Shown: in pieces, positions 659 through 37,635 of the stretch
How positions within the stretch are numbered: position 1 is the stretch's first letter
Layout: every line of letters starts with the position of its first letter
Source of the DNA: an uncultured Verrucomicrobiae bacterium
GTDB lineage: Bacteria > Verrucomicrobiota > Verrucomicrobiia > Limisphaerales > JAFGQR01
Direction: 5' to 3'
Length of the DNA: 37,670 bases
Assembly (NCBI GenBank): GCA_963788655.1
Contig: CAWBHS010000096.1
Coordinates: 1 to 37,670 of the forward strand
Position numbers and translations under genes: made by a program
Notes under the pieces: generated by a model
What the model saw: only the letters and a program-made list of their open reading frames with translations
Told to the model about the DNA's origin: nothing
Databases searched by the model: none

Positions 659-661
659 AGT

Positions 662-2037: not shown

Positions 2038-2053
2038 CTCATGAGGCCGGGAC

Positions 2054-2410: not shown

Positions 2411-2447
2411 GGTAGATTTCGTTTCCTTTCTTTTCTGAAGACGTTGC

Positions 2448-6064: not shown

Positions 6065-6102
6065 GCCGGCGTTGATTGTCTCTTATTTTAGCTCGCTCAC
6101 GC

Positions 6103-8155: not shown

Positions 8156-8195
8156 CACATCGAGACCGCAACGTGTCCATCGAACCAACCATCGC

Positions 8196-10760: not shown

Positions 10761-10893
10761 CGCGATGCCGGCGTAAGCCAACGCCCGTGCGCCAAGACTA
10801 GAAAGTCTGGCCTCAGCCTGCGATTGGTAGTCCTCGACAAAACCTTGCCATGGCAAGCTTCTTAGCCAACCTGGCAACTTGTCTCAAAAACCT

Positions 10894-11538: not shown

Positions 11539-11550
11539 AAAGCAAAAGGG

Positions 11551-12333
11551 CTATTCTTTGCAGTATTCGGCGAAGGGCAACGAGCCGTCCATCACGTAAC
11601 CGCCATCCAGTGTGAGCGATTGCCCCGTCATGTAACGGGCATCGTCGCTGGCGATGAACACGGCGCCGGCGGCGATCCATGCCGCCTCGGCAATCTCTTT
11701 GAGCGGCACGCGCTGGAACAAGGAACGCTTCACTGCTTCGGTATACATTGGCGTCGTCAATTCCGTGTAAGTAGCGCCGGGGCGAATGAAATTGACCGTG
11801 ATTTTGTGTGGCGCCAGTTCGGTTGCTAGCGTCCGTGAGAACGCCTCGATCCCTCCTTTGGCGGTGGTGTAATGCCCGCAGTTTGGTTCACTGAGGACCG
11901 CGTGAATGCTGGAGATGCTGAGGATCCGCCCGCCGCGTTTTTGTTGGATCATCTGCCGCGCCGCCTGCTGCGAACAGAGGAAAACACTTTTCAGGTTGGT
12001 GCGAAGGATGAAATCCCAATCCTCCTCAGGCATGTCCACGATTGGCGAGAACCGAATCACACCGGTGTTGTTGACCAGCACATCCAAACCGCCGAGAAAG
12101 GCGACAGCCTCCTGAAACGCCGCGTTTACCTGTTCGGCATATCCAACGTCGCAATGGATGGCGACTGCCTTGCGTCCGAGCGTCTGGATGGACTGAACCA
12201 CCTCGTTGGCCTTGGGCATATTGAGGTCGAGGATCGCGACGTCGGCGCCTTCGCGGGCAAACGCGGTGGCAATGGCTTTGCCAATACCGCTGGCGGCTCC
12301 GGTGACGATGGCTGATTTGTTGGCGAGTTTCAC
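11551..12333 (-). CDS. Short-chain dehydrogenase/reductase (SDR)
   Basis: GTG start; TGAASGIG, NNTG, catalytic YTTAK, ITVNFIRPG and LTLDGG. Confidence 0.92.
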   Translation of the reverse strand: MKLANKSAIVTGAASGIGKAIATAFAREGADVAILDLNMPKANEVVQSIQTLGRKAVAIHCDVGYAEQVNAAFQEAVAFLGGLDVLVNNTGVIRFSPIVDMPEEDWDFILRTNLKSVFLCSQQAARQMIQQKRGGRILSISSIHAVLSEPNCGHYTTAKGGIEAFSRTLATELAPHKITVNFIRPGATYTELTTPMYTEAVKRSLFQRVPLKEIAEAAWIAAGAVFIASDDARYMTGQSLTLDGGYVMDGSLPFAEYCKE

Positions 12334-16100: not shown

Positions 16101-16924
16101 CGAATTGAGTCTGGGTCGCAAGTATTTTCCCGGCATGAACACGGTGCGGCTGTGGCTTTCGCATGACGCCTTATTTCAAGGATCCTGATCAATTCGCACG
16201 TAACTTCGAAACCGTGCTGGCGGCGTGCAAGCGGAATCAGATCAAGGCGATCCCGACACTGTTTAATAACTGGCACAGTGTTCCCGACTTCGGGGGAATC
16301 TCCATGGAAATGATCAACTATTGGTTTGCCAGTTTCGGTCACAACGGCCAGGCCTCCAATTACGTGTTTCGGCCCTACCTTAAGGCGCTGTTCGGCAAGC
16401 ATGCCGCCGACCCGCGAATTCTGGCGTGGGACTTGTGCAACGAGCCATTCAACAATGGGCGGGAAGTCTATCTGGGCTGGCTCCGTCACACGTACAACAC
16501 GGCCAAAGCCCTGGGCGTCCAGCAGCCCGTGGGCGTCAGTGTGGCCGCCTCCGTGGACCAATTGCGGTTGGTGGAGCCATTCAGCGATGTGCTGCTGATT
16601 CATCCTTATTTCGCATCGCAAGTCGCGTGGGATGCCTTGCACGCGTTCGCCCGCGAGAAAGACAAGCCACTGCTGGCGACCGAATGTTGTTGGGGCGCGC
16701 TGGATGATGCCCGCCGGGTGGCCATTATCGAAGCCGACCTGAAGGCGTTGCAGCAGCAGAACGTTGGATTCCTGGCCCACGCGCTGTTTGAAAGTTATGT
16801 CGCCGATCTGCATCGTCCCCGGTACGGCATCATCAGTTCCGCCGAATACATGGCGTTCATTCACATGGACGGCTCCCTTCGCGCGGGCCACGAAGTGTTC
16901 AACCGCTACGCCCCCAAGCTGTGA
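13164..16924 (+). CDS. Secreted multidomain glycoside hydrolase: clan GH-D (GH36/GH27)-like barrel with an inserted F5/8-type-C module, fused through frameshifts (about 16005 and 16171) to a clan GH-A (GH5-like) domain
   Basis: Signal peptide, ALYLDPGW (about 14277), FLMFDG (about 15159) and a discoidin module at 14547-14981. The +1 frame from about 16007 reads WQSVRGFNYQPS...GMNTVRLWLSHDA and has no start codon of its own after an in-frame TAA near 15964. It joins ORF 16163-16924, which has WDLCNEP and LATEC. Confidence 0.65.
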
Positions 16925-19900: not shown

Positions 19901-20678
19901 CGACCGGTGCGCCGCACGAGCGTTGCAGGCGACAGCCTCGAAGACGACTGGGGAAGACGACCAGGAAGTTTTGGAACTGACCGTCAAGAACAGCGGTCCG
20001 ATGACGGCACTGTTCTGCGAGCCGCATCCACTGATCGAATACCGCAACGATCTGTTTATTGAGAACAACCATTGTTTCATTCCGCCGGGTGAAAGCCGCA
20101 TTATCACAATCCGTGCGGCGAACCAGCGCGGCGGCGGATTGACCCTGGCGCAAACCGGCTGGCGGCTTTCGTGCTGGAACGCCGCCGACGTGATCATCGA
20201 GCCCGGCAGCGACGTGCTGTTGGCGCTGGGCCGCCGGGACGCGCTGGGCCGCGAGTTCGCCGGCTACTTCGATCCAGGCACCGTCTCGGAAGCATCCCGG
20301 GTGCAAGTCCAAGGAACTCGTCCCGATCCGGCCCGGGTGCCTTACTTGCTCGACGGCAACCGCGTCGTGCAATTCGAGTTCTCGCTGAGCGAGGCGCAGG
20401 CGAGGCGTCCGGCCCGGCTGCGGATCCATGCGGCAGATCAGTCGGACAAATTGCCGACCCACGTTGCGGCGAAACTCAACCGACGAGCGATTGAGGGCAT
20501 ACTGCCGGTCGGCCTCGGAATTCAGCGGAGCGACCCGGCGCACCTGGCGTTTCCGGGCACGGTCGAGTTCACCGTGCCGGCATCGGATTTGCGGTCGGGC
20601 AAAAACGTTTTGGAGATTCGCGTGCAGGACGACGGCTGGTTCTCCTGGGACGCCATGGATTTGACGAATCATGACTGA
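16921..20678 (+). CDS. GH2 (beta-mannosidase-like) glycoside hydrolase with F5/8-type-C module, paralogue 1; frameshifts near 19835 and 19920
   Basis: GTGA overlap with the upstream stop and a signal peptide. ATVPGNIQADL, LVFDGVD, WGWDWG, LWWPNGQGDQPLY, GMNTLRLWGGG, RNHPSIIEFDGGNE (acid/base) and GEFG (nucleophile). The C-terminus lies in ORF 19869-20678. Confidence 0.85.
20151..20381 (+). repeat. Dispersed direct repeat shared by the two GH2 paralogues (copy 1; copy 2 at 23978-24208)
   Basis: 38-bp exact match (20151-20188 = 23978-24015) and a 60/64 match (20318-20381 vs 24145-24208), counted by hand. Confidence 0.9.
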
Positions 20679-20690
20679 GGAAAGGGCACC

Positions 20691-23600
20691 ATGAGTCGCA
20701 ACACCAGGGGAGACGCCGCTCTTCAAGGGGCAGCGATCCGTCGTAGTCATGTTAGGGGCATTGCTGCTGGGGATGGTCTGGGGCGGTGTGGGAATTACCT
20801 CCGCCCAGCGAGCCGACCATATCGCCAGCCTCTCGCTTTCCGGTGCGGATTGGTGGATTCACGAAGACGCCGACGGCGAGGGCGCGGAACGCGGGATGCC
20901 GGAAGCCAACGTCCCGTCGGCTGGCTGGGTCGCCGCCACCGTGCCGGGCAACATTCAGGCCGACCTGGAAGCGGCCCGCCGGATCCCGCCTTTCTGGTAT
21001 GAGCGTGATGACCCATTACTGGCCAAGGCTCCCAAGAGCGGAGCTTCGCTCAGTTGGGCGGCGATGTGGAATCGCCGCGACTTTACTGTCCCCGGCGGTG
21101 ATCCGCGACTGGTGGACGTGGCCCGGAAGGATTGGTGGTATCGCAAGGATTTTACCGTGCCGCCAGCGTTCGAGGGCCAGCGAGTCAAGCTGGTTTTCGA
21201 CGGCGTGGACCAGGAGTGCGAAGTCTATCTCAACGGCGACAAGATTGGCGGCCATGGCGGCATGTACCGTCAGGTCGGCTATGAGGTTGGCCCCTCGTTG
21301 AGGGCGGGTCAGGTCAATCATCTGGCAGTGCGGATCGCCAGGATGCCGCCATCGCTGGAGCGGCACATCGGGATGCCGTCGCAGATCAAAGCCTACCGCC
21401 ACGAGTTAAGCGAAATCAAATGTCCCAGCTACGGCCTCGACTGGGGCATCGGCGTCTATTCGCTGGGAATTTGGAAAGATGTTCGGCTGGAAGCCAGCGG
21501 TCCGGCCCGGATCGAAGATGTGCACGTACAGACCAAGCTCGATGAACCCTATCGGAGGGCAAATATCATCGCACGGCTGGAGGTGGATAGTCAGCAGCAA
21601 CTGGGTGCCAAAGTGCGGTTGCGAATTGAAGGCCACGGGACCAACGTCTCTACGGAGGTCGGCACCCTGTTATTGGAAGGGAGCAATCAAATTGAAGCCG
21701 TCCTAGTCCTGGACCAACCCGCCCTGTGGTGGCCCAACGGCCAGGGCGATCAGCCGTTGTATCAGCTCACAACAGAACTGGTCGATCTGGAGGGGACAAT
21801 CCTCCACCGCCGCACGACGCGGTTTGGAGTTCGTGACCTCCAGTGGGTGCCGGTGGAAAACGCGACGCCCGACGCTTCTGTTCGGTCGCAGTTGGTGGTC
21901 AACGGTCGGAAAGTGCGCCTGATGGGATCCAACATGATCCCCGCCGACCTGCTTCCCGGGCGCCAGCACACGAAGGCCGACTGGCTGCTGCGGATGGCTC
22001 ATGCGGCGGGAATGAATGTGTTGCGGATCTGGGGCGGGGGCGTGACCCCGTGCAACGAGTGGTACGACCTGGCCGACGAGCTGGGCATCATGATTCAGCA
22101 GGAAATGCCCACCACCAATTCGGGCGAAGGCTGGCCGGAGGAGTATTCCGCCTACACCGCCGCCATGGAGCGGACCGCGATCAGCATCCTCCAGCAACTT
22201 CGCAATCACCCCAGCATTGTCGAGTGGACGGGCGGCAACGAGATGGGCTGGCCGGGGAACAACTCGCCCATCCCCACCCTGCTGCGGAAACTCGTGGCGG
22301 AAATGGACGATCGGATTTTTCGCGTGACCGACCCGAGCCCGGGCTGGGCGCATGGGCCTTACAACGCCACTCCCGAACAGTTCTACCGGAGCTACAACGC
22401 CGCTCCGGCAACCCGACGGGACGAATTTGGGGCTCCTGGTCCGGCCAATCTCGAAACCTGGTACCGGGATATTCCGCCTTCATCCCAATGGCCGCTGCAA
22501 TCGAATGATCCGGTTTTGGTCGTCAAAAATGTAATCTATGGCTGGCTGGGAAACACTTGGTTGCAGCCGCAAGTTATCGCAAGTCTGTTCGGCTTATTGC
22601 CGGACTTACCCTCGTTGGTCAAGGCGGGGCAGTGGATCAGCGCCGACGAGCTTCGCTATGCGATGGATGCGATGCGGCGGGGCGGGCTGCGGACCAGCGG
22701 ATTCATGAACTGGGTCTTCAACGAACCCTGGTCGAACGGGGCGGGCAATACGGTGGTGGATTATGATGGCCGGCCCCTGATGAATTACTACTGGGCCAGG
22801 CAGGCGCTGACGCCCATCAGCCTGTCCCTCAAATTTGACAGCCTGCGTTACCAACCGGACCAAGGTTTGCAATTCGAAGTCTGGCTGACCAGCGATTCGC
22901 CCTGGCCGGCAAGAGAATTGTCCTGGCAACTGCTCGCGCGCGACCGGCACGGCAAGGTTTTTGCGACCGACCAGGGCCAGGCGAATATCGATCCGTTGCA
23001 GGTCAAGCGGCTTCGGGCGATTTCCGTGGGGATTCCGGCTGAAATATCCTACGGACCCATTTTCGTCGAAATGCAATTACTGGATGCCAAGGGCAGGACG
23101 CTACAGGAGCGGTTGCAGATCTTCGGTTGCGATCTTCTGGTGGCGCCGTTTCGGGGCCTGCTGGGAGGGCGGCCGCCGGACCAGGAGGGGGTTGCGGATG
23201 CATTTCACCTCACGGCGCTTAATAATCTTGCCAGTGTCGCCAATGGAGCGAAACCGGCCACGGCCACCTCGAGCCGAACGGAGCCATACCACCAGCCGGC
23301 GGGAATTAATGACGGGAAATATGGCAACGACGCCAGTTGGATACCGGTATTGCCAAAATCCTCATTCCAAATTGAGCTGGGCGAGCCGGCTGCGGTGAAC
23401 CTTTTCAAGCTCAGCCGTGACCGCAACGGACAATACCGCGACCGCTGGGTTGATTACCTCAAGATCGAGACTTCGCTGGATCACTCACAGTGGCATGCGG
23501 TCTTTGAGCAATCCGCCATCCAGAGTCTGCCCGACTTCAATCCTGGCGGGGTGATGACGATCCGCATCGATCCCCGGCGCGCCCATTTTGTGCGGGTGAT

Positions 23601-24533
23601 GGTCGAGGCTCAGTCACCCGGAACCGGTGAGTTTCCTTGTATCGATGAGTTTGAGGTCTTTGCGACGGGTGACGATCAACGCAATTTGCCGCGAATCTCA
23701 TTCGGTGCCGGCAGACTGAATGAGTGGCGTTCGGTAGCTCGTACCACGCTCGAGGTGTCGCCGTTGCCGCCACGCGTCGAAGCCGGGCAGGAGGTCCTCG
23801 AATTGCAGGTAAAGAATGCCGGCAGCATGACGGCCCTGTTTTGTTTGCCTCATCCGCTGATCGAGTACCCGGACGGATCTTTTCATCGATTCCGGCGAAT
23901 GCTCCATTCCACCGGGCCAGTCCCGGAGGATTACGATCCGCTCCGCCGTGCGGAGCGATGGTGGTCCAAGTCTGGCCCAAACCGGCTGGCGGCTTTCGTG
24001 CTGGAACGCCGCCGAGGTAGTGCTTGAGCCGAGTAACGACGTGCTATTGGCTCTGGGCCGCCGGGACGCGATGTGCTGCGAGTTCGCCGGCTATTTCGAT
24101 TCAGGCAGCGTCTCGGAGGCGTCCCGGTTGCTGGTCCAAGGTAATCGTCCCGATCCGGCCCGCGTTCCCTACTTGCTCGACGGCGACCGCGTCGTGCAAT
24201 TCGAGTTCCAACTGCGCGAGGACCAGGCGAAACAGCCGGCTCTGCTGCGACTGCACACGGCCGACCAATCGAACCAAGCTGGAGCTGTCGTCGAAGCCAC
24301 CGTTAACGGAAGGTTGTTCGCGCATTCGTTGCCCAAAGGACTGGGGGTCCAGAATACCCAAGCCGCCCATTTGGCCTTCCCGGCGACCTTGGCTTTTCAG
24401 CTCCCCAAGGACGTGTTGCGAGCCGGGCACGAATACCGTGCAAGTCCGCGTCAAAAAGGGTGGTTGGTTCACCTGGGACGCGATGGATCTAACGGCGAGA
24501 GGTGAGCCTTCGAGGGAACGGCAGCAGCGATAA
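20691..24533 (+). CDS. GH2 (beta-mannosidase-like) glycoside hydrolase with F5/8-type-C module, paralogue 2; frameshifts near 23868 and 24427, and probably near 20708
   Basis: Same architecture as 16921-20678: GMNVLRIWGGG, RNHPSIVEWTGGNE, DEFG and a matching C-terminus (GWFTWDAMDL). The start is either the RBS-preceded ATG at 20691 (needs one frameshift in a G-run) or the ATG at 20749. Confidence 0.85.
23978..24208 (+). repeat. Dispersed direct repeat shared by the two GH2 paralogues (copy 2)
   Basis: Same alignment as for 20151-20381. Confidence 0.9.
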
Positions 24534-24554
24534 AACCCATAACCACGAATCAAT

Positions 24555-24875
24555 GTGACCGAGCAATTGAGATCAACCAGCCGCCGCCGCTATCTTCTGA
24601 GTATCCACAGTCCGGCCGAACCCGTGGCGATATTCAAGGGAACAACACCCCTGACCCGGCAGCAGACGAGCGATGAATTGCTGGCCGATGGAGCCAAGCG
24701 GGGCTGGTCTTTCGACAAGACAAACCGCATTGTCTGGATCAAGCCGATGGCTGGATGGTACTATGCCGTGGATGAGCGCAAAGCCGGTGATCCGGAGAAG
24801 GACTCCGTCCACTGGTTGGAATCTGCCCAACCTGAAGAAAAATTTTATGACCTGCGCATTCAACTTGCCCTGTGA
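24555..24875 (+). pseudogene. Short ORF resembling an orphan C-terminal beta-sandwich of a glycoside hydrolase (GH31 DUF5110-like)
   Basis: RRYLLSIH..P..I..G..L...L....GWSFDK...IVWIK pattern. No signal peptide, no catalytic domain and a weak GTG start. Confidence 0.35.
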
Positions 24876-24900
24876 ACTGAGCAACCAGCGAGGCCGGACA

Positions 24901-27900
24901 ATGTGCCCTCCATTCGTTGCCCTGGCCGCCGGCGCGCTGTTCGCCCTGGCCAACCCGGGCCGTGCCGAAGTGAAAGTTATCGCCGAATACCGGCTGGGAG
25001 CCAGCACGCCGCAGATCACTTATGCCGCCGGGCCGGAAACACTGACGGATGCCGCGGGCACAAACCACCCGCTCGAGCGGACAGGCAATCCGCGCTTCGT
25101 GGCTTCCGCGCCCGCCGTGCCGTCCGCTCAAGGCGCGGGCGCGCTCGCGTTCAATGGGACCAACGACGCCTACGTCCGCACCGGCGCCCTCTTCGATCGC
25201 AATGACCGTTTCGGTTTGGAAGCCTGGGTGAATTCAAGCGAAGCATCGGTCAAAGGTCTCAAGGGCGTCGTGGCCAATGGCAATGGCGCCTTGGGCTACG
25301 TGCTTGGTCAGAGCGGCAACCGTTGGGTGGTCTTTGTTGGTTGCGTCGGCGCGTTCGATATCGGACCGGTCACGCCGGGCCAATGGACTCACCTCGCCCT
25401 GGTCAACGACGACAATGAACTGGCCGCCTACCTGGACGGCGAAAAGATTCGCGCGGTCTCACCCACTCCGGAGATCAAGCCCGTTTTTCGCATCGGCACG
25501 GCCGGCTTGCCCGAGGAACACTTCAAGGGACTGGTCCACACCGTGCGCATTTTCACGTTTGCCCCGGGAGGATTTGATGCCCGCCGCGACTTCCTGCTGG
25601 ACTACGAGCAGCGGCGCAAAGTGGCACAACAGCAGCGCGACGAACAGGCGGCCTTCATCCGACGCCTGGGCCGGCCGCAACCCGGCGTCTCCGTGGTTCA
25701 GGAGTTGGACCTCCAACCGGCTGCGGGCGATTGGTTGATCACGCCGCCCGACCAACCGGTCCAACTCCAGGTGGAGCCGTCAGCCGATGGACAATCGGCG
25801 CGGTTCGTGCTGGGCAATGGATTGATCACCCGTTCGTTCTATGTCAGCCAAAATCTGGCATGCGACAGCTATCGCAACCTGCGGAACCGGGCGGAGTTCG
25901 TCCGCGCGGTCAAACCGGAAATGCGCCTCAAACTTGACGGAACATGGTATGACGTCGGTGGCCTGACCGGTCAACCGGAACGGGCTTACTTGGTGGAAGG
26001 CTGGCTGAAGGACATGCGGAGTTCGCCAAACGCCTTCCGGATCACAGGCTTGACAACCGGCCAACCCATCGAACGCCATCCCTGGAAGCCCAAATTCAAT
26101 GCCCCCAACTTACCCTGGCCACCCAAGGGGTTAAGGGTCTCGATGCACTACGCGCCGCCGAAAACAATCGATCCGCGGTACCAGGATCTCAAATTGACCG
26201 TGCATTACGAGATGTACGAAGGCATTCCCGTGTTGGCGAAATCCTTCACCTTGGAGAATGCCGCCGACGAACCGGTGCTGGTCGAGGAGATCGAGACGGA
26301 GATCCTGGCGGTACCGCAAGACCAGATCAGCAACATCCACGCCGAGAGTGATTACTCGTTCCATCTGGCCAACCACTCTCCCGATGATTGCCATGCGGCC
26401 GGGGCTCATTCGAAGGCCATTCAATGGGATGCGCCGTTGTACCTGGCCGGCCGGACCACCACCGATTGGCGCGTGGATCCCGAGCTGGATTCCTGGGCCC
26501 ATCCGACGGCCATCGAAGACAAGTTCCTGGGCCACACCTTTCGCAACATGATGGTCAGCCGCATTCCGGTTGGGCCATCCCAACTCGTGCCGCCAGGTCA
26601 GGCCTTCAAGTCGCACATTACTTTCGAACTCCTTCAAGACAGCACCGACCGCGAACGCTGCTCGCTTGGGGTGCGCCGGATGTATCGCACCCTTTGCCCG
26701 CAGGTCAACGAGAGCCTCCTCACCGCTGCTTGTCCTTCCCAGGATCCGACGGTGATCAAGAAATTGCTCGATCAGATGGGTGAGTTGGGCTTCGAAAGCT
26801 ACTGCATCACGTTCTGGCCCGGGGTTAGCCATGACAATCTCGATCCGGCGTATGTGGCAAAGTGGAAAGACATCGCCGATTACGCCAAAGCCAAGGGAAT
26901 TATCGTGAGCGGCTACGAGTTGATGGTGGCTTCTCGCGGACGCGGCGCCACGCAAGATTGCATCGATCCGGCCACCGGCAAGCCCGGCAGCCCATTCGGC
27001 CAGTCGCTCTGTTTGGGCACTCAATGGGCCGACGATTATTTCCAACGCGTCTGGAAATTCATCGACCAGACCGGCTTCATGGGCATTGCGGTCGATGGTC
27101 CGTATCATGGCTGCCCTTGCGCTTCGACCGTGCACAAACACCATCGTGGTTTGGCCGATTCCCAGTGGGTGCAATGGCAGCAACAGAAACGAATGTTCAA
27201 GGAAGAACAGCGTCGTGGCATGACTGCGGGGGCACCGGACTGGTATTTTTGGAACGGGCAATCCAGCACCAGTCTCGGCTACCGCGAGGCCAGCGCCAAC
27301 CTGCCGCGCGAACTGGGCCTGCTACTTTACCGCCAATACATTTACGATGGCACTTGGTTCAAACCACCCACCATGGGCGGCATGGGCATCGGGTTGATCG
27401 GCACGTACAATAATGATCCGCGCGCAATGCTTGAGCCGCTGGACCAGAACCTGGACTGGTACAAGTTGAATCTCCTCCAACTGCTCGGCTCCGGTTGCCA
27501 GGCCAGTTTGCGCGCCAACCGGCTTTACGATACGGAGCGGACGCGGCGGATGGTCCGCCAGTGGGTTGACTGGTACAAGAAATACCGTCCTATTCTGACG
27601 TCCGACATTATCCATGTGCAACGCCCTGATGGGCGCGACCTCGACTGTATTATGCACGTCAATCCCCAACTCGCGGACAAGGGATTGGTCCTCTTCTTCA
27701 ATCCGTTGACCGAATCCCTGACTCGCACGGTGCGATTGCCGCTCTATTACACCGGCCTGACGGACACCGCCTGGATCCGCGAGCGGGAAAACGAGGCCCG
27801 ACCATATAAGCTGAGCCGGGATTACGACGCGGAACTCAGTGTCGCGTTGCCGCCGCGAGGAGTCACTTGGTTCGTAATCAGCGACCGCAACGCGACGAAA

Positions 27901-27915
27901 CCTGTCAACCAGTAA
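24901..27915 (+). CDS. Secreted LamG/ConA-like domain + GH36-like (alpha-galactosidase-like) protein
   Basis: Signal peptide (FVALAAGALFALANPGRA) and LamG motifs (FGLEAWV, GQWTHLALV, AYLDG, FKGLVHTVRIF). The barrel region has IAVDGPYHG, PDWYF.NG...GYRE and SDIIHVQRPDGRDLD. The ORF is intact. Confidence 0.7.
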   Translation: MCPPFVALAAGALFALANPGRAEVKVIAEYRLGASTPQITYAAGPETLTDAAGTNHPLERTGNPRFVASAPAVPSAQGAGALAFNGTNDAYVRTGALFDRNDRFGLEAWVNSSEASVKGLKGVVANGNGALGYVLGQSGNRWVVFVGCVGAFDIGPVTPGQWTHLALVNDDNELAAYLDGEKIRAVSPTPEIKPVFRIGTAGLPEEHFKGLVHTVRIFTFAPGGFDARRDFLLDYEQRRKVAQQQRDEQAAFIRRLGRPQPGVSVVQELDLQPAAGDWLITPPDQPVQLQVEPSADGQSARFVLGNGLITRSFYVSQNLACDSYRNLRNRAEFVRAVKPEMRLKLDGTWYDVGGLTGQPERAYLVEGWLKDMRSSPNAFRITGLTTGQPIERHPWKPKFNAPNLPWPPKGLRVSMHYAPPKTIDPRYQDLKLTVHYEMYEGIPVLAKSFTLENAADEPVLVEEIETEILAVPQDQISNIHAESDYSFHLANHSPDDCHAAGAHSKAIQWDAPLYLAGRTTTDWRVDPELDSWAHPTAIEDKFLGHTFRNMMVSRIPVGPSQLVPPGQAFKSHITFELLQDSTDRERCSLGVRRMYRTLCPQVNESLLTAACPSQDPTVIKKLLDQMGELGFESYCITFWPGVSHDNLDPAYVAKWKDIADYAKAKGIIVSGYELMVASRGRGATQDCIDPATGKPGSPFGQSLCLGTQWADDYFQRVWKFIDQTGFMGIAVDGPYHGCPCASTVHKHHRGLADSQWVQWQQQKRMFKEEQRRGMTAGAPDWYFWNGQSSTSLGYREASANLPRELGLLLYRQYIYDGTWFKPPTMGGMGIGLIGTYNNDPRAMLEPLDQNLDWYKLNLLQLLGSGCQASLRANRLYDTERTRRMVRQWVDWYKKYRPILTSDIIHVQRPDGRDLDCIMHVNPQLADKGLVLFFNPLTESLTRTVRLPLYYTGLTDTAWIRERENEARPYKLSRDYDAELSVALPPRGVTWFVISDRNATKPVNQ

Positions 27916-27970
27916 CCCAATGGCACTTTCCCATTCCATGAAATCCCAATCCAAAACCCCACCCCTCCCC

Positions 27971-30900
27971 ATGAAACACCCTGTCTCATTCCGTTGCGCA
28001 ACCGCGCTCATCGCGGTGTTGGCGCCACTGTTTCTCCACCTGCCTGCTTCGGCCGCGGAGCGGACAAATCGACCCGACCAAGCCCGCCGCGAAATTGCGG
28101 AAGAAGAGTTCGCCGCCCACGCCGCGACGATGGGGGCGGACCCGGCGAAGAACACCCTGGTCACCTCCATCGAGTTTTCGCCGCGCGAGGCGCGTTTCGT
28201 GCGGTTGGTCATCCACCGGTCGAATGGCGGCCAGCCGTGCCTCGATGAGCTCGAGGTGTATGGGCCGGACTCGCCAGCGAATCTTGCGCTGACCAGCCGC
28301 GGCGCCGTGCCGCGCGCGTCGTCCCTCCTTCCTGGTTACGCCATTCATGCCGTGAAACATCTGAACGACGGCCTTTACGGCAACGCCCATAGCTGGATCG
28401 CCGCCACGGTCGGAGACGAATGGGCGCAGATTGACCTGCCCGCGCCGGCGCGGATTTCGCGGGTGGTCCTCTCGCGCGATCGGAACGGGCAGTTCAGCGA
28501 CCGGCAGATCCTGGAGGCGGACGTGCGCCTTTCGTCCGACGGCCAAACCTGGCAGACCGTTGCGTCCCTGACCCGCGCGGCCAGTGAGCTGCGGCCTCCC
28601 CAGCCAGCGATGACGCTCCCGCTGGCGGAGCTGCCGGAGCCAACCTGGGCTGGCGCCGTCATCTACGCGTTCCTGAAAGAACGGGACACGTGGAGCCGAA
28701 TGGACGCGCACGACTACCTATCACCCCTGGTGAACGACCGACCAGCCTCGCCGGGCGGACCGCTCTACTGGGGGCGCATCGCCCGCCTGGCACCGCTGGA
28801 GCGCACGCTGGTCCAGTTCGAGGAAATGATTGTGCGCCTGGCGGCCCTGGGCCTCGAGGTCGGCACGGAGCGGGCCGAACTCGCCGAGCTGCGCCGGCAG
28901 GCCAAGGATCCGGCGGCGGCGGCTTCGGACGCGCTCTACCTGGCCGCGCGACAGGCCAAACGCCGGCTCTTCTTCCGCGACCCCCGGCTCGCGCCGCTCG
29001 AACACGTGCTTTTTGCCAAGCACCACCCCCTCCACCCCTCGCACAATTACAGCGAGCATTTGGATTCGCTGTTTATCCCCGGCGGAGGGATCTGCGTGCT
29101 GCAAATCCCGCGCGATGCCGCGGGACGGCTGAATCCAGCGCGGGCGGAGGTCCAAACTCTCTTCGATGGCAGTGCCGGCATCGTGCGCCACCCGATCGCC
29201 GATTTCGAGGCGCGCACCATCTACTTCGCCTACCGTCCGGACAAGCCGGAAGTGGACGGCTGGAAGTCCTATTGGCACCTGATGTCCATGCGCATTGACG
29301 GCGGTGGCCTGCGCCAATTGACCGAGGGTCCCTATCACGATTTCGATCCGGTCCCGCTGCCCGACGGGGCGTTGGGTTTCATGACCACTCGCTGTCAGGC
29401 GCGGTTTCTCTGCTGGGAACCGCAAGCCTACGTGCTGTACCGCATGCAGCCCGACGGCACAGACCTGCGCCGGCTCTCGTACGCGAACCTCAGCGAATGG
29501 GATCCGGCTGTGATGCGGGATGGGCGGATTCTGTGGACGCGCTCGGAGTACCTGGACAAGGGCGCCGACTTCGGCCACACGCTCTGGGCCATCCATCCCA
29601 ATGGCGATCATCCCGAGCTGGTCTTCGGCAACGATACCCCCTACTGCTACGGCCATGGCGCGCGAGGTGCCTGACAGCCAGGAAATCGTCTGCACGATCA
29701 TCTCCCACGGCGATCACCAGGGGCCGATCGCGCTGATCGATCCCGGCAAAGGTCGATACAACACCGCCGCCATCACCAGCATCACTCCGGACACCCGGCC
29801 GCAGTACCAGATGGACCGGTCTCACTACGAGACCTTCCGCGATCCCGAGCCAATCTCGCGCGACCATTTCCTGGTCAGCTCACAGTCCCGGCCGACGGCC
29901 GCACTGGGGCTTGTATGTCATCGATCGTTTCGGAAACCGCGAGTTGCTTTATCTCGATCCGTTGATCAGCAGCCTGCGGCCCTCTCTGTTGCGCGCTCGC
30001 CCGCGCCCCCCGGTGCTGCAGGAGAAAACTCACAATCCCTTGCTGGCGCAACAGGGGCTCGGCCAATTCACGATCCAGGACGTGTACGAAGGCCTCGGCT
30101 CGACGGTGGCCCACGGCCAGGCGAAATATCTGGAGGTTTCCCAGGAGGTGCCGGCTCCCCTGAAGAAACTTGCCGACGGCGAATTTCGGTCCTCGCATCC
30201 GGGCTTTCAGGATTACTACGCCACGCCGGTCCATCTGGTGACAGGCCCTGCCGAAAGTTATACCACCCGAACCGCCAACGCGCTCGAGCCCCACGCCTTC
30301 CGGCAAGGGAGCGCCGCCCCGGCGACGAACGGAGCAGTCACCGTCACCGAACGCGACGGTTGGCCCAGCTATGTGGCCAAGGCGGTGTTGGGCACGGTTC
30401 CCATCGCCGAGGACGGTTCGGTGAACTTTACCGCCCCATCCGGCAAGGTGCTGTATTTCCACCTGCTCGACGAGCACTTCAATGAACTGCAACGCATGCG
30501 CAGCGTGGTCCAGCTTCAGCCGGGCGAACAGCGTAGTTGCATCGGCTGCCACGACGAACGACGCGGCGCGCCGCTACGGCAAGCCGGTCTGGCGCTCACC
30601 CGGCCGGTGCGGGCGCTCACCCCGCCACCTTGGGGCGCCGTGCCCTTTGATTACGAACGGGTCGTCCAGCCGGTTCTGAACGCAAACTGCGTCCGCTGCC
30701 ACGAACCCAAGTCGGACGCGAAACCAGATCTTCGGGGCACCCTCGACGCCAACCGCGTGCCCGCTTCCTACCGCTCGCTGATCGCGGGAGGATGGGTGCA
30801 TTACTTCGACTGGCATTACGGCTCGCGCCATTTCAAGGCGGAACCGCTTTCCTTCGGCACGCTTCAGAGTCGCCTGTTCACGGTGCTGGCGGACCAGCAG

Positions 30901-31089
30901 CACCAGACCGTCACCCTCAAGCCCGATGATCTGCGTGCGCTGAAGGCCTGGATCGACCTGAACTGCCCTCTCTGGCCGGACTATCAATACCGGCCAGAGC
31001 GTCCGCTGGAACCGATCGCCACGATACCGGACCCACCGGGTACAGGCGAACGGCTTGCTCGGGCTATGGGGGCAGTCGAGCGGGAATAG
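27971..31089 (+). CDS. Secreted HzsA-related protein: permuted F5/8-type-C module, TolB-like beta-propeller, hydrazine-synthase-alpha-like middle domain, two c-type haem motifs; frameshifts near 29657 and 29880
   Basis: Signal peptide; propeller repeats (DGGGLRQLT.GPYHDFDP, DGTDLRRLS...EWDP..DGRILWTR); LGTVPIAEDGS...LYFHLLD...MRS...QPGE..SCIGCH (30538-30552); CVRCH (30688-30702). Alternative ATGs at 27920 and 27938. Confidence 0.8.
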
Positions 31090-31215
31090 TTGCTACGATC
31101 AGATCACCTTGGAGCAACCCACCCCCATGCCGACTACGTTGCCCTGAAGCTCAAAACGTCTTCACGGCCAAACGAGCTTTGAAGTAGCAACCTCCCAACG
31201 CACCCAAAGAACGCT

Positions 31216-34200
31216 ATGACGCTTGCTCAAATCCGGATTCCTGCTCGCGGCGACGTCGTGCGCCATATCCTTGGCTGGGCCGGCGCGGTGGCACTGGCCG
31301 GCAGTGGCATGAACGCGGCCGAGACCCCGCCGGAGCCTTCTCTCACCCCGACCGCGCACCGGGAACTGCTTCTCAGCGGTGACGACTGGCAACTTGTCTC
31401 GTCCACGCCGGGACAAGGCTCGTCACGTCGGGCTTTTGCGGCAGGTTATCCCGATGCTGATGCCATCAGCGCGATTGTGCCGGGTGACATTCATTGGGAC
31501 TTGGAGCGGTCGGGAAAAGTGCCCCCGATCTTTTGCGGAACCAACAGCCAGCTCATCGGCTGGGTGGCGGGCAAAGAATGGTGGTACCGGAAGCAATTTG
31601 TTACTCCCGCCGGTTGGAAGGGAAAGCGTGTCGCCCTCCGCTTCGAGGGGGTTGATTATCTGGCCGAAGTTTGGTTGAACGGGCAGCCTCTGGGACAGTC
31701 ACGAGGGTCAGTTCACTCCGTTTGAATTCGAGGTGGCCGAAGTCCTGCACCCCGGAGAAACCAATGTGTTGACGGTGCTCATTCATCCGGCGCCGGCGCT
31801 CGTGCGTGACGCCATTGCCCGCGGCGCCGGCGAATGGCCCGTCATGACGGCGATGCGCCAAGCGTATCCGCGGTGGAAATGCCCGACCAATGCCGGTTGG
31901 GATTGGGGCGCCAAAATCATCACCATGGGCATCTGGAAAGAGGTCAAGTTGATCGCATCCGATGGCGTGCGGCTCTCGAACCTGATCGTGCAACCCAGCC
32001 TTTCCGCTCCCTATGACCGCGCCCGGTTGCACACTCAAATGGAGATCAGCAGCTCAGCACACACGCCGATTGAACTTGTCGCTCAAGTTCACTGCCTGAC
32101 CGTGCCGGATTCGCCAATCGTCGCGACGCAGGTCGTCAACATGGCCTCCACGGAACACCGCGCCACCATGAGTGTAGCGGTGCCCCACCCGCGCTTGTGG
32201 TGGCCCAACGGCTATGGCCAGCAACACCTCTACCAACTCACGGTTACCGCGCGTCCCCTCGGAGGCGACCGGGAACTCGACCGGATCGCCACCACCTTCG
32301 GCATTCGTGACCTGCAAATGTTGCCCAATCCCGAGTCACCGGACAATCAAGTCTATATCGACTACACCACCGATCGCGCTGTCTCTCACAAACTGCCTCA
32401 ACCGCCGCCCGAACGGCGCTACCTGATCCAGATCAACGGACGCCGTATTTTCGGCCGGGGCGGCAACTGGATTCCTTGCGACCTGCTCTATGGCCGGCCC
32501 CGCGGTGCGTTTTACGAGCGCCTCATTCGGCAGGCGGCGCAGGCCAACTTCAATCTCTTCCGCATGTGGGGCGGTGGTTTGATCGAGAAGCCGGAGTTTT
32601 ACGAACTCTGTGATCGCTATGGCATCATGCTGTTCCAGGAATTCCCCAATGCCGGAGCGCGGTTGCCGGAAACCGACGAAGCCCTGGCCATTGCGGCGGA
32701 GGAAACCCGGCAGATTCTCCCGCTCCTGATCAATCATCCCTGCATCGTCCGTTACGGCGGCGGCAACGAGTGGTACCGCAATGCCGAGAACAGCCGGCAA
32801 ATGGCCCAACTCCGGCGCATCTGCCACGAACTGGATCCAACCCGACCCTTCCATGATCCCGACCCGGAATGCATCGCGCAACGTCATGGGCCACACGGCT
32901 ACGACTGGGCGCAACATTACCGGACCTACAATACCGGCTATCCCTTGACTGCCGGGCCCGACAATCCGCTCGAATGGACGGAATACGGTGCCTCGGGGGC
33001 CGCGTCGGTCGAAACTCTACGCCAGATCATTCCCACCGAACATCTCTGGCCCATTCAACCGTCCGATCCCTACTGGGGCTGGCACAAGGCATTCGGCGCT
33101 TATGGAGCGGACAACTGGATGGCCTCCGCGCAGTATCATCATCTGTTCGGCGATTTGCCGGACTTGGAAACAACCGTGCGTTGCAGCCAGTTCGTCCAGG
33201 CTGAAGCGTTGCGCTACGCCGACCAGGCCATGCGCCGGTTCCAATGGCACCGCAGCGCCTGTGCGTCGTGGACGTATAACGAACCTTGGCCCAATGCTGC
33301 TCATGGCTGCATCGTCGAATTCTACGGCCGGCCCAAGATGGCTTACTATTACACCGGCAATGCGTATGCACCGGTGGACGTAAGCGCGGAATACGATTCG
33401 TTGCTCTGTCAGACGGAAGTTCCTTTTCCGTTAAAACTATTTGTGACCAGCACGCGCGCGGACCGGCTTCAAGGCTGCCAGTTCATTGCCCAGGCTGTGG
33501 ACGTCCAAGGCCGGGAATACGCAAAAACGAACTGGACGCTGGCGGTTGTGCCAGACGCAACACTGCCTGTAGGAACGTGGAACCTGAATGTGCCCGCCGA
33601 GGCAAAGAACAGCGTCGTTCTGGTCCAATTGCGTCTGCTCAATACCAAAGACTCCGAGTTGGCCGCCCAGACCTACACTTTTGGCGTCGTGGGCCATGAG
33701 TCCCCTAACCAAGCTGATCCACTCAAAGTCCCCACTCTCTCCGCTGATGGTCGTCGCAATCTGGCGCTGCGGCCGGGCGCCAAGGCGGCGGCTTCGTCGG
33801 TCATTGCGGGTTACGCCATCCATCAAATCGCCCATCTCAACGACGGTTGGTACGGCAACAGCGCCAGTTGGATTGCGGGTGAATCTCCCGCGTGGGCGGA
33901 GATCGATCTGGGTACCAACGCGCTCATTTCCCGGGTGTGCGTCGGCAATGATCACACGCGCAAGTTCACCGATCGCGGGACGGCGGAGTTTCGGATTCTT
34001 GTGGCCACGCAACGGAGCGAGCATTCCAATGCCGCCTCATGGAAAACGGTTGCGCATTACCAAGGCGACCCGCTCCAAGGAACCAAGGTTTTCGATCTTG
34101 ATCCTGTCGAAGCGCGTTGGATTCGGATCGACATCATCAAAGGTACGGAGGCGCGAATTGATGAAATTGAAGTGTACGCCGCCGAGCCATTTACTGGCGA

Positions 34201-37200
34201 CCGCGCCGTGGCGGAAGCGGCCGCCGTGCGTGGACCGGCTCCGGCACCTTCACCCAGTGCCCAACACGCTGGTTATCTGCGCCCCCTTTTGACGGCTCCG
34301 ACCACCGGCCTTGAGCTTTCGCTCGACGATGGAAAACCCGTGTCCCGATATGGCTCGGCGTCACGCGTGTTCAAAGCCAAAATTCGTAACCGCAGCGCTG
34401 TTCCGGCCCTGTTCGTGGCGCTCGACCTAGATCCGGTGGATGGCGTTGAAGGCCAGTTGAGTGACAATTATTTCACCCTGCTGGGAAACGCGGCGAAGAC
34501 GGTGGAGATTATGCTCATCGGTTCGCCACCAACTACAGGAAATCCCGCGCGCTTGCGCTTGCGCGCCAGAGCCTGGAATTCGGCCGAAGTTTCCCAAATG
34601 GTAGTTGCCACCGTTCCGCCACCGGCGGAGCCGGCAATTCCGTATGGCGTGGCCACCAATGTTTGGCCGGAGCCGTTTGGAAACCATCGCGCCCGCATTC
34701 GCGTCGATCACCCGGCCGACGCCGTTTGGGTCCATCTGCCGTGGCGGCGACGCGACTTGGATCCGGAAAAGAAGAATGTGGTGGTAGTGGACTTAACGAC
34801 AGGGCAGACCATCACAAACGTTGTGTGCGCCCAGATACACCGCGAATTTGGCGACTTGGTTTTTCAGCCGGTGACGGTGCCGGGCGAGTATGGAGTTTAT
34901 TACTTGCCCTGCAAATACACCGGTTCCAGTTACTTCCCCAATACCGTTTATGATGCGCCGGTGGAAACCGCCGATGCGGCGTGGAAAGAGCGTTGGGAAC
35001 TGACTCCAGCCGGTTTGGCCGCCGGGCACTGGCAACGACTTCCCCGCGCCCACGTGCTCCAATTCGAAGCCCGCAGCGAATTCCATCGCTTCGATCCCAT
35101 GGAAGTCATTGCCACGCCGGATGAAATCCAATCGCTCCTGGCACAACATTCGGAGCGAGATTATCTCCTGTTTCCTGAAGACCGCCGATTTCCGATCCGC
35201 ATGACCGATGACATACCGCTTCGCTGGGTGACCAACCGGCTGACCGGTTCGTTTGCCGGCAACGTCCGGCCCGGCGAGTTCTACACGTTCCAGGTTGGGC
35301 TTTATGCCGCCCGCCGTTCGGTGAAGAATGTTCGCGTCACTTTCAACGATTTGGTTTCCGCTGACGCAAAGATGATTTCCGCCTCCGCGCTACGGTGTTT
35401 CAACCTTGGCGGAACCAACTGGCTGGGACGCCCATTCACCAAGCAGGTCAACGTTCCGCAGGGGAAAGTCCAGGCGCTCTGGTTTGGGGTGCAGATACCG
35501 CCCAAAGCATCCGGATTATACACCGGTATGGTGCGCTTGAGCGCTGACGAACTGGTGGAAATGGACCTCAAGCTTCAACTCACCATCGAAGGGAAACCGC
35601 TCGCCGACGCCGGCGACAGCGAGTTGTGGCGACAGTCACGGTTGCGATGGCTCGATTCGACCATTGGGCTGGATGACGACGTGGTTTCGCCTTATGCGCC
35701 TGTGAAGATCAACGGTCGAACTCTCACCGTGATGGGCCGCAACGTGACGTTGGCAGACACCGGGTTGCCCTCCGTCCTCTCGAGCACTTTCACGGAGGCG
35801 GTGGACAGTATCGAGGGAGCGGAACGGCTGATTCTGGCCCGGCCAATGGCGTTTGTGGTGGCAACACCGGACGGCGCGGTCGCTTGGCAGGGCGGCAGCC
35901 CGCGCATCACCGCACGTCACCCCGGTTCGGTGAGTTGGGAATCGGAAAGTGCCGGAGCGGATCTGAAAATGCGGTGCCAGGGAAAGCTGGATTGCGACGG
36001 CTATATCAATTACACGGTCACGCTCCGCGCCCGGCGGGAAACCGATGTCAACGATGTGCGGCTGGAAATTCCGTTCCGGAGCGAGGTGGCAAAATACATG
36101 ATGGGCCTCGGGTGCAAAGGTGGTAAACGCCCAAGCGCGTGGCAGTGGAAGTGGGATATCAATCGCGCCAACAACGTCGTGTGGCTCGGTGACGTCAATG
36201 CCGGATTGCACTGCAAACTCAAAGGCGCTGGAGGATGTGTGGGAATTGTACAATTTGAAATCCTCCGGGGTGCCGGATAGCTGGAGCAACGGCGGTCAAG
36301 GCGGTTGCTCGCTCAAGGAAGAATCGCCGGAGGTCGTGCTTCTGCGGGCTTACACGCGGACCCCGCCGGCTTCAGCCAGACCAGGAATTGACGTTTCGTT
36401 TCGGGCTGATGGTCACACCGGTGAAGTCGCTCAATCCGGCGCATTGGAATTGGCGTTACTGGCACGCCTACTCGCCGGTGGAAGAAGTGGCCCGCAACGG
36501 AGCCAAGATCATCAACCTTCATCACGCCAACGAGTTGAATCCGTATATCAATTACCCGTTCCTGGCCCTCAACAAGCTCAAGCCCTACGTGGAAGCAGCG
36601 CATCGCCTGGGCATCAAGGTCAAGCTTTACTACACCATTCGCGAGTTGAGCAATCACGCGGTTGAACTGTGGGCGCTGCGCAGCCTGGGTGACGAAGTGT
36701 ATCGAGATGGACCGGGCTTCCGCCTGGCCGACCAGTTTGTCTCGCAATCCGCCGACCAAGGAGATCATACCACCGGCAACGCCTGGCTCTGCGAACATTT
36801 GATCACCGATTATGTGCCTGCCTGGCACCATCGATTCGGCCCGGGCGACTGGGACGCCGCGATTGCGACCACCGGCCTGTCGCGCTGGCACAATTACTAT
36901 CTCGAGGGTATGGCCTGGCTCATCAACTCGGTGGGCGTGGATGGCATTTACCTGGACGGCATCGGTTACGACCGCGAAATCATGAAGCGCCTGCGCAAAG
37001 TGATGAACCGGGCCCGGCCCGGTTGCCTGATCGACTTCCACTGCGGCAACCATTACTTACCGCAATACGGGCTGAACAACATTGCCAACCAGCACCTCGA
37101 ACATCTGCCTTACATTGACAGCCTTTGGCTGGGCGAAGGCTTCAACTACAACGAGAGTCCCGAATACTGGCTGGTGGAGTTGTCAGGAATTCCCTTTGGC

Positions 37201-37635
37201 TTGTTCGGGGAAATGTTGGGCGTCGGCAATCCCTGGCGCGGCATGCTCTATGGCCAAAGCAATCGGCTGCCTTATGGCGGAGGCGATCCGCGTCATCTTT
37301 GGAAAGTCTGGGACCAGTTTGGGATCCAAGACGCCCACATGCTGGGTTATTGGACAACGGCTTGCCCCGTCAAAACGGATCGCGCGGATGTGCTGGCTAC
37401 CGCTTACGTTAAACCGGGAAAAATGTTGATTGCCCTCGCCAGTTGGGCGAAGGAGACAACAGCGGTTCATCTGCGTTATGATTGGTCGGCATTGGGATTG
37501 GATCCGAGTCGCGCCAGCCTGCGCGCTCCGGCTATCCCAGGTTTCCAGGAGGAACGCGAATTCAAATCCGATGCGGCAATCGCGGTGCCGCCCGGACGCG
37601 GTTGGTTGATCCTTCTCCAGGAACAATCGGAATAA
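31216..37635 (+). CDS. Giant (about 2100 aa) secreted fusion: GH2 + F5/8-type-C module + DUF6067 (GH123-related) domain; frameshifts near 31697, 36224 and 36357
   Basis: The GH2 part has LRFEGVDY, AGWDWG, LWWPNGYG, FRMWGGG, YGGGNE and TEYG. The discoidin module is at 33758-34177. From about 34640, GNHRARIRV...HLPWRRRD, HHANELNPYINYPF, KLYYTIRELSN, DGIYLDG and DSLWLGEG match the DUF6067 pattern. Confidence 0.78.

Follow-up and report, generated by a model that had tools for sequence, protein, structure and literature searches.

The forward strand of contig CAWBHS010000096.1 from an uncultured Verrucomicrobiae bacterium (37,670 nucleotides, analysed at full length and hereafter called the window) carries, at positions 27971-31089, a gene for an exported c-type dihaem protein of the HZS_alpha family. 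Its product combines an F5/8 type C module, a TolB-like β-propeller, an HZS_alpha middle domain and a cytochrome c domain, and the gene is an ordinary member of a very large, Pfam-named and uncharacterised family. Judged by its sequence, the protein is related to the α subunit of hydrazine synthase (HzsA) and is not itself a hydrazine synthase. Our tentative reading, which we hold with less than even confidence, is that it would serve as a glycan-tethered periplasmic redox protein acting on a sugar, a sugar substituent or a hydrolysis product. The domain fusions predicted across the family are the main basis of this proposed link to glycans, and serve it better than gene neighbourhood does.

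The first-pass annotation of the window treated 27971-31089 as one gene and missed that it does not form a single open frame. The interval spans 3119 bases, a number not divisible by three, and its translation is interrupted by stops. Three open stretches on the + strand cover it, namely frame A (27920/27971-29674), frame B (29514-30485) and frame C (29737-31089). Frame A ends at a stop at 29674, and coding sense passes into frame B at about 29657 and into frame C at about 29880. These switches were placed by comparing nine paralogues from the same genome and six orthologs with the window DNA using tblastn. Every query with a frame-B match (five of the nine paralogues and all six orthologs) gave the order A, B, C, and the remaining four paralogues matched frames A and C only. 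The closest ortholog, L001 from a Verrucomicrobiales metagenome-assembled genome, is 76-80% identical to the window gene. Its residues 22-592 align with frame A at 77% identity, collinearly and without gaps, its residues 586-665 with frame B (frame 2) at 80% and its residues 665-1040 with frame C at 76%, and the alignment is gap-free across both joins. The ortholog reads straight through the first join as ..YCYGHAREVP.., where the close homologue P0005 has ..YGYGHGREMP.., and through the second, again gap-free, as ..RDHFLVSHNPG... The read-through product therefore consists of 562 + 74 + 402 = 1038 residues (Table 1). P0005 (869 aa) is also the closest database homologue over the first part of the frame-C stretch (piece C), at 59% identity; just past its first CxxCH motif it continues into low-complexity, out-of-frame-looking sequence that seems to come from a frameshifted assembly.

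Both extra bases are almost certainly sequencing or assembly errors, and the gene is very probably intact in the living organism. The window makes up the entire contig C96 of an assembly of 8.96 Mb and 115 contigs, with a completeness of 86% and a contamination of 5.6%. In the same assembly, rpoB lies in three pieces over two frames and rpoC in at least five pieces, with one in-frame TGA. We attribute the breaks in our gene to the assembly because these essential genes, which cannot be broken in a living cell, are split likewise, and because relatives carry unbroken frames. Such uninterrupted frames occur in L001 and L074, with 1040 aa each, and in G001, a genome of the same genus, with 1032 aa; in G001 the ortholog sits on a 5065-base contig with no gene context. 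Since rpoB and rpoC carry roughly one indel per kilobase, broken genes in this genome are to be distrusted in general.

If both frameshifts were instead real, the gene would be a pseudogene whose product would reach at most 567 residues and would lack the haem domains. Both extra bases are present in the deposited sequence, neither lies within a long homopolymer, and the public reads do not decide against them. Matching reads came from two soil-metagenome DNA runs of one study (shares 0.08 and 0.06) and from no RNA run. They yielded four exact 151-base read contigs on the gene (28245-28395, 28541-28691, 30596-30746 and 30737-30887) plus short unlike fragments. None of the read-derived contigs (four exact, two runs) crosses 29657 or 29880, which counts against our reading of the gene. 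Pseudogene decay is nevertheless very improbable, given that rpoB and rpoC show the same kind of breaks at a comparable density, and that other genes in the window (the downstream GH2 and GH123 genes and an MFS transporter) are broken too. Moreover, identity to the ortholog is 80% in the out-of-frame middle segment and 76-77% in its flanks, the middle segment has no internal stop, and all family-invariant residues are retained over the three pieces.

The first-pass annotation had named a signal peptide, a discoidin module, a TolB-like propeller and a hydrazine-synthase-α-like middle domain, all of which are borne out. The N terminus is signal-peptide-like when read from the translation, and the corresponding residues 1-14 of the ortholog's structure model have a predicted local distance difference test (pLDDT) score below 50. 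The F5/8 module scores 42.4 bits against F5_F8_type_C (PF00754; cut-off 28.2) and 33.7 bits against PF22633 (residues 132-203; cut-off 27.8). The whole β-sandwich extends over approximately 28160-28585, corresponding to strands at residues 65-201 of the ortholog model. No Pfam family matched the helical linker that follows in the Pfam scan. The propeller was recognized through fold comparison of the 76-80% identical ortholog's model, for which Foldseek searches of the PDB returned TolB chains at E 9e-11 to 1e-8; the Pfam PD40 repeat gave no match at E<=0.01 in the frame-A piece and was detected in some relatives. The middle domain scores 73.7 bits against PF18582 (gathering cut-off 26.6) in a hidden Markov model search, with the match confined to 30352-30555 and profile positions 31-98. 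Profile positions 1-30 are replaced by a low-confidence insertion (pLDDT <50, piece-C residues 127-157). The C-terminal domain gave weak Cytochrome_CBB3 and Paired_CXXCH_1 matches, both under their Pfam cut-offs. The model of the intact ortholog (mean pLDDT 85.4, predicted template modelling score 0.84) divides into a β-sandwich (65-201), helices (226-344), the propeller (345 to about 680), a β-rich part (695-860) and a helical end (870-1011). The AlphaFold2 model of the window's own piece C (m01f7fcd12983) has a mean pLDDT of 75.8.

The likeness to HzsA noticed at first reading is upheld at the levels of both sequence and fold. Among PDB sequences, phmmer matched HzsA of Kuenenia stuttgartiensis (PDB 5C2V chain A; NF052339; PF18582) alone at E<=0.001 (5c2v_A, 2.8e-5), and both CxxCH motifs align with its two haem sites. 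The same chain is the top PDB fold match of the ortholog model (E 5.6e-26, target-normalised template modelling score 0.60, 835 columns). For the piece-C model, 5c2v_A (E 2.6e-12) and 5c2v_D are the sole Foldseek matches at E<=0.001, and VIA-align returned generic β-sandwich matches only (Z up to 7.3), with 5C2V absent from its rows. The window protein and HzsA share a propeller, a β-rich domain with a CxxCH motif and a helical C-terminal domain with a second one. The authors of the 5C2V structure reportedly place the active haem of HzsA at the interface between propeller and middle domain.

Hydrazine synthesis and an anammox function were considered and rejected. Against the NCBIfam equivalog NF052339, the ortholog L001 scores 56.6 bits and piece C 25.3 bits, and thus both fail the cut-off of 800. 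A CCP_MauG-fold (γ-type) partner, PF03150, has no match at E<=0.001 in the genome, which is 86% complete, and none among the scanned window ORFs (open reading frames). The third ground is a missing tyrosine. According to the accessible text of Hagglund et al. 2025 (PMC12758564), Tyr591 of HzsA, four residues after the motif histidine, ligates the iron of haem αI, whose CxxCH histidine holds a zinc together with Cys303; the window protein reads CIGCH-DERR and has arginine there, a comparison of sequence position only. The two proteins differ further in that an invariant methionine of the window family is alanine in HzsA, in that the window protein has an additional N-terminal F5/8 module and helical linker, and in that the window holds neither a β nor a γ partner. 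The window gene also lies in the glycosidase cluster of a heterotroph, whereas HzsA is encoded in an anammox operon. A dihaem protein that combines a propeller with CCP_MauG is the immediate neighbour of an HZS_alpha paralogue at one locus elsewhere (L065:8066-12478); this pairing is the α plus β-γ-like arrangement described in the accessible part of PMC12758564, and it is not seen in the window or its genome.

Two haem attachment motifs, CIGCH and CVRCH, had been read from the letters and are present (Table 1), and their conservation had been named beforehand as a test. The alignment used for this purpose places 160 proteins on the profile, comprising the best 150 of 2927 matches and the ten copies from the window's own genome. 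Of about 153 relatives, at least 152 retain each motif: the two cysteines and the histidine of the first in 153/154, 153/154 and 153/155, and those of the second in 153/153, 152/153 and 152/153. Other near-invariant residues cluster around the first haem motif, among them Asp833 (152 of 153) and Glu852 (148 of 153) as well as Asp814, Ser816 and Arg843. Conservation in the propeller is similarly strict at Cys481 (29411-29413; 109 of 110), His579 (125 of 127), Arg474 (105 of 109) and Tyr527 (116 of 118), and Trp539 is also family-invariant. Met842 is a candidate sixth ligand of a haem, and His977 a candidate distal ligand of haem 2. For the latter, the analogy is with haem αII of HzsA, which has bis-His ligation according to the accessible text of PMC12758564. 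The genome offers cytochrome c assembly genes, with two PF01578 matches above cut-off on contigs C38 and C59.

The family to which these features belong is extensive. A HMMER pass with piece C returned 2927 representatives of 50% identity clusters at E<=0.001, of which 1801 reach E<=1e-10 and 346 reach E<=1e-30, and a scan of one genome per species confirmed at least 582 of 613 pattern matches. Eighty loci were kept among the matches listed, and their hosts belong to Verrucomicrobiota, Planctomycetota, Lentisphaerota, Kiritimatiellia, Armatimonadota and Hydrogenedentota. Ten HZS_alpha matches come from the window's genome alone, and in every one of them two CxxCH motifs lie some 50 residues apart. 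Tandem arrays also occur, with three HZS_alpha genes in L059:4057-15303 and two in L054:8228-13357, some of them carrying Laminin_G_3.

Domain fusions were scanned in 79 long relatives among the best 150 matches, made up of 41 proteins of about 890 aa or more (ranks 2-97, without P0096) and all 38 of at least 808 aa at ranks 98-150; the 71 shorter, mostly fragmentary relatives were left out. All 79 match HZS_alpha, and 34 carry modules of the lectin or carbohydrate-binding module (CBM) type (25 of the 41, then nine of the 38). These modules are F5_F8_type_C (20 proteins), Laminin_G_3 (six), NPCBM (four), 3keto-disac_hyd (two), DUF642 (one) and DUF7402 alone (one). Other fusions involve Mala_s_1-like domains (two) and, in one protein each, Golvesin_C, an FGE-sulfatase domain and a BlaR1-type M56 domain. 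Among eight paralogues scanned from the window's own genome, three have a C-terminal FGE-sulfatase (formylglycine-generating-enzyme-like) domain and two an F5/8 module. In the three, on contigs C100, C7 and C55, the FGE-sulfatase domain follows the dihaem core (L081:7684-11379, L082:8194-11463 and L083:8356-11922), and the same fusion occurs in P0099 and in L057:12230-16303.

Under the glycan-directed reading, the F5/8 module would tether the protein to a galactose- or N-acetylgalactosamine-type glycan in the periplasm or at the cell surface. A reaction centre would lie at the interface of propeller and middle domain, formed by haem 1 together with Arg474, Cys481, Tyr527, His579 and Met842, and its substrate, to be oxidised or reduced, would be a sugar, a substituent on a sugar or a product of the neighbouring exo-glycosidases. 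Haem 2, probably ligated by two histidines including His977, would relay electrons to or from soluble periplasmic carriers. The fusions to FGE-type oxidase domains (three of eight scanned paralogues, and P0099) fit such an electron-supply role. One difficulty for this scheme is that the near-invariant methionine and the mostly kept histidine could make both haems six-coordinate, which would argue against haem-centred catalysis. In that event the propeller pocket (Arg474, Cys481, Tyr527 and His579) would host catalysis, with the haems serving as an internal wire in the manner of quinohaemoprotein dehydrogenases.

Oxidoreductases built from a CBM, a propeller and a cytochrome are represented by the fungal pyrroloquinoline quinone (PQQ) pyranose dehydrogenase (AA12 + AA8 + CBM1) and by bacterial quinohaemoprotein dehydrogenases, and galactose oxidase combines CBM32 with a kelch propeller and has no built-in cytochrome. 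The window protein resembles these enzymes in joining a carbohydrate-binding module to a propeller and a relaying cytochrome (the last not in galactose oxidase). It differs from them in that its listed Foldseek propeller matches are to TolB, S9 peptidase and YWTD propellers and none is to these oxidoreductases, in that there is no evidence for PQQ or copper, and in having dihaem c in place of haem b or a single haem c domain.

The conserved residues and the fusions also bear on the idea that the protein is not an enzyme at all. A non-catalytic glycan-binding or sensing protein would use the lectin module and propeller to capture a glycan or to hold a complex together, with the haems acting as a sensor or in a structural role. 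Propellers of the TolB type usually act as platforms for binding, both haem sites may be closed by the conserved Met and His, and one of the 79 scanned relatives, P0006, is fused to a BlaR1-type Peptidase_M56 signal-transducer domain. This protein (1855 aa) has the membrane transducer at its N terminus and two F5/8 modules, and it hints that some family members may act as extracytoplasmic sensors. However, the transducer domain occurs in only that one of the 79 relatives, and the FGE-sulfatase oxidase-type fusions suggest electron supply. The near-invariance of Asp814, Ser816, Asp833, Arg843 and Glu852 near haem 1 and of Arg474, Cys481, Tyr527 and His579 in the propeller, which holds across relatives that are only 30-40% identical, fits an active site over a scaffold. 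We therefore consider a purely binding or sensing function improbable.

Association with carbohydrate-active enzyme (CAZyme) loci, which the first-pass annotation had named as a check on a glycan role, is present in one measure and fades in others. ORFs of at least 100 aa were called with a greedy caller and the two nearest on each side were taken as neighbours, giving 260 ORFs at 79 loci (one of the 80, L032, had none). ORFs at least 5 kb away at the same loci served as controls (142 of 146 scanned). A product was counted as glycan-active if it was a glycoside hydrolase, carbohydrate esterase, sulfatase, FGE-sulfatase, CBM, Laminin_G_3 or Golvesin_C protein. By this definition, 28 of the 260 near ORFs are glycan-active versus six of the 142 far ORFs (odds ratio 2.7, p 0.025). 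This enrichment is weak support for the glycan link because the loci are related and the mean ORF length is greater near the gene (444 aa) than far from it (345 aa). Also counted in favour of the link are the short same-strand gaps of 55 and 126 bases that separate the window gene from its neighbours on either side.

Several observations weigh against a glycan-directed role. The odds ratio falls to 1.8 (p 0.15) when DUF1080 is counted and is 2.6 (p 0.11) for enzymes only, the loci are mutually related and hence not independent, and only 23 of the 79 have a glycan-active neighbour within two genes. The GH2 and GH123 surroundings of the window gene are not common to its closest orthologs: in L001 and L074 the neighbours are a DUF5696 protein and an acetyl-CoA synthetase, and L003, L006, L007 and L008 have no such surroundings. 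The nine other paralogues of the same genome lie mostly amid housekeeping genes, and 45 of the 79 long relatives have no recognised lectin or CBM module. The window copy is the most glycosidase-embedded case among the loci examined.

A rival reading is a redox role with no tie to glycans. In such a case, the protein would be a periplasmic redox or electron-transfer protein for small molecules (for example nitrogen oxides, hydroxylamine, peroxide or respiratory electron flow), and its location would be a coincidence in a glycosidase-rich genome. HzsA, the only characterised relative, acts on small nitrogen compounds according to the accessible text of PMC12758564. Fifty-six of the 79 loci lack a glycan-active neighbour within two genes, enrichment is not significant under two of the three definitions, and the paralogues of the same genome adjoin genes such as those for SecDF, HisG, a Na/H exchanger and chemotaxis proteins. 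However, the lectin or CBM modules found in 34 of 79 long relatives would be of little use to an enzyme for diffusible small molecules, and the presence in a single genome of ten diverged paralogues bearing varied targeting modules suggests a polymer-directed family. Features specific to HzsA are also lacking, with scores far under the equivalog cut-off and no CCP_MauG partner found in a genome that is 86% complete. On balance, we regard a glycan-unrelated function as somewhat unlikely, and retain the glycan-tethered redox protein as our tentative reading.

Previous work offers a precedent for this reading in a different protein family. The accessible text of He et al. 2017 (PMC5615132) describes multidomain PSCyt (Planctomycete-specific cytochrome c) proteins of Verrucomicrobia and Planctomycetes and proposes that they take part in carbohydrate metabolism. 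The idea of a glycan-linked haem c protein therefore has a printed precedent, as far as that text goes. The likeness to the window family is that PSCyt proteins are haem c proteins of the Planctomycetes-Verrucomicrobia-Chlamydiae (PVC) group, have many copies per genome, lie near sulfatases and glycoside hydrolases, and in some cases are fused to Laminin_G_3, NPCBM, CBM_6 or F5_F8_type_C. They differ in lacking the propeller and HZS_alpha core, and the window protein has no PSCyt or PSD Pfam match.

Distant HzsA homologues outside anammox bacteria have been described in Hagglund et al. 2025 (PMC12758564), whose accessible text presents them as having lost key HzsA residues and as having no experimentally confirmed function. 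The corresponding statement in the first-pass annotation agrees with this account. The same text reports more than 600 Foldseek matches labelled HZS_alpha or cytochrome c domain-containing. Like the window protein, the proteins covered there come from Planctomycetota and other phyla, mostly have two haem sites and lack the key HzsA residues. The focus of that text is on homologues beside fused β-γ-like genes (clades I-IV), whereas the window has no β-γ-like gene. The equivalent of α-His772 is described there as absent from clade I, whereas the window family has a candidate distal histidine in 124 of 148 proteins. The accessible part of PMC12758564 makes no mention of lectin or CBM fusions or of glycosidase neighbourhoods, and our literature search, whose coverage excluded subscription journals, found no paper that ties the HZS_alpha family to glycans.

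The genes that surround the target gene in the window (Table 1) support part of the earlier statement that it is flanked on both sides by glycoside hydrolase genes. GH2, GH2 and GH123 genes do lie on the two sides, whereas the immediate upstream gene, at 24673-27915, is only weakly glycosidase-like (18.4 versus 27 bits). The product of that gene has no NCBIfam match and no PDB sequence match, and shows no similarity to the DUF5696 neighbour of the orthologs. The GH2 gene at 20749-24027 gave distant NCBIfam β-galactosidase matches, all far under their cut-offs. Downstream, ORF 31216-31725 matches Glyco_hydro_2_N2 at profile positions 11-92, and ORF 31733-36280 continues with positions 105-167 followed by Glyco_hydro_2, Glyco_hydro_2_C and Ig_mannosidase to residue 935. 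Residues 980-1498 of the latter ORF match GH123_N positions 6-519, and ORF 36388-37635 matches positions 577-968. This run-on of GH2 into GH123 probably reflects further indel errors and is probably not a true fusion. A scan for promoters and terminators over 16000-35900 gave a site count below that of shuffled sequence, with no site in either intergenic gap, a result that says nothing on whether the genes form an operon.

Table 1. Positions of features of the dihaem gene, its haem sites and neighbouring genes (window coordinates unless stated)
Feature	Position	Strand	Details
Frame-A segment, residues 1-562	27971..29656	+	Signal peptide, F5/8 module, helical linker, most of propeller
First +1 frameshift	29653..29662	+	One extra base, most simply G at 29657 (..GGC CAT G/GCG CGC GAG..)
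Frame-B segment, residues 563-636	29658..29879	+	Propeller blade with family-invariant His579 (29706-29708)
Second +1 frameshift	29875..29881	+	One extra base, most simply T at 29880 (..GTC AGC/T/CAC AGT..)
Frame-C segment, residues 637-1038 and stop	29881..31089	+	Propeller end, HZS_alpha middle domain, C-terminal cytochrome c domain
Signal-peptide-like N terminus, 28 residues	27971..28054	+	..PASA/AE; MKHPVSFRCATALIAVLAPLFLHLPASA/AE, read by eye from translation
F5/8 type C (discoidin, CBM32-like) module	28355..28579	+	PF00754 E 9.4e-11, residues 129-199
All-helical linker, about residues 226-344	28646..29002	+	Helices in ortholog model (identical numbering here)
TolB-like β-propeller, about residues 345-680	29003..30012	+	Crossed by both frameshifts; strands 345-672 in ortholog model
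HZS_alpha middle domain	30058..30555	+	β-rich, ends in first haem motif; PF18582 E 1.8e-20
Met842, candidate sixth haem ligand	30496..30498	+	QRMRS motif; Met in 151/153; Ala in HzsA
CIGCH, first c-type haem motif	30538..30552	+	Aligns with CSGCH (haem αI site) of HzsA
C-terminal helical cytochrome c domain	30589..31020	+	Helices at piece-C residues 237-359
CVRCH, second c-type haem motif	30688..30702	+	Aligns with CAMCH (haem αII site) of HzsA
His977, candidate distal ligand of haem 2	30901..30903	+	His in 124/148; analogy with bis-His αII
GH2 gene	16921-19878		Upstream; Pfam
GH2 glycosidase with C-terminal F5/8 module	20749..24027	+	Glyco_hydro_2_N2, Glyco_hydro_2, Glyco_hydro_2_C, F5_F8_type_C
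1080-residue protein	24673..27915	+	Laminin_G_3; Glyco_hydro_36N 18.4 bits (cut-off 27); ends 55 bases before target gene
GH2 glycosidase	31216..34538	+	126 bases downstream; split between frames at about 31725-31733
GH123-type gene	34670..37635	+	Run together with GH2 frame; split again between 36280 and 36388
Split rpoB/rpoC	G000:C45:51013-58956		Own genome, outside window

Farther upstream, positions 2-12333 hold genes of sugar-acid catabolism: a KDPG/KHG aldolase (2-658), an FAA-hydrolase family protein (2448-3254), a D-2-hydroxyacid dehydrogenase (6103-7128), two SDRs (6893-8155 and 11551-12333) and a putative cyclase (10894-11538). The set resembles a non-phosphorylative deoxy-sugar pathway of the fucose or rhamnose type, and similar genes flank homologues in L057 and L066. 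The MFS sugar transporter ORF at 8127-9050 ends at position 215 of the 452 in the Sugar_tr profile, probably owing to another frameshift.

Two further observations concern the neighbours of homologues elsewhere. A URO-D-like gene (uroporphyrinogen decarboxylase/methyltransferase family) lies within two genes of the homologue in six of the 79 loci (L020, L028, L031, L052, L063 and L075), and the far controls contain one weak URO-D match. The order DUF5107, homologue, URO-D is repeated in L028, L031 and L075; a sulfatase follows URO-D in L031 and L075, and the next ORF in L028 has no Pfam match. The L012 contig, labelled Acidiferrobacteraceae, has the same gene order as L074 (homologue, 910-aa DUF5696 protein, acetyl-CoA synthetase), with identical Pfam scores for DUF5696 and nearly identical ones for the synthetase. 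The likely cause is faulty binning or a duplicated record.

A broader proposal is that the CBM-bearing branch of the HZS_alpha family constitutes a large, unrecognised class of haem c-dependent carbohydrate oxidoreductases in glycan degraders of the PVC type. Such proteins would be bacterial counterparts of the fungal CBM-propeller-cytochrome enzymes, working alongside exo-glycosidases and forming, in effect, a new auxiliary-activity family. Their propeller/haem centre, of common descent with hydrazine synthase, would carry out the oxidation or reduction of a sugar or one of its substituents. The window protein matched no AA-type family in the Pfam scan, which involved no CAZy or dbCAN comparison. 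We consider this wider claim rather unlikely.

The implications nevertheless extend beyond a single gene. For the window gene itself, the glycosidase surroundings are suggestive, yet they are not conserved in its closest orthologs. A single genome of Verrucomicrobiota, Planctomycetota or their allies can hold as many as ten members of the family, and these bacteria rank among the major degraders of complex glycans. If the members with lectin modules act as redox enzymes on glycans, current models would lack a whole layer of the chemistry by which polysaccharides are broken down, and the family would show the kind of periplasmic haem protein from which hydrazine synthase was recruited.

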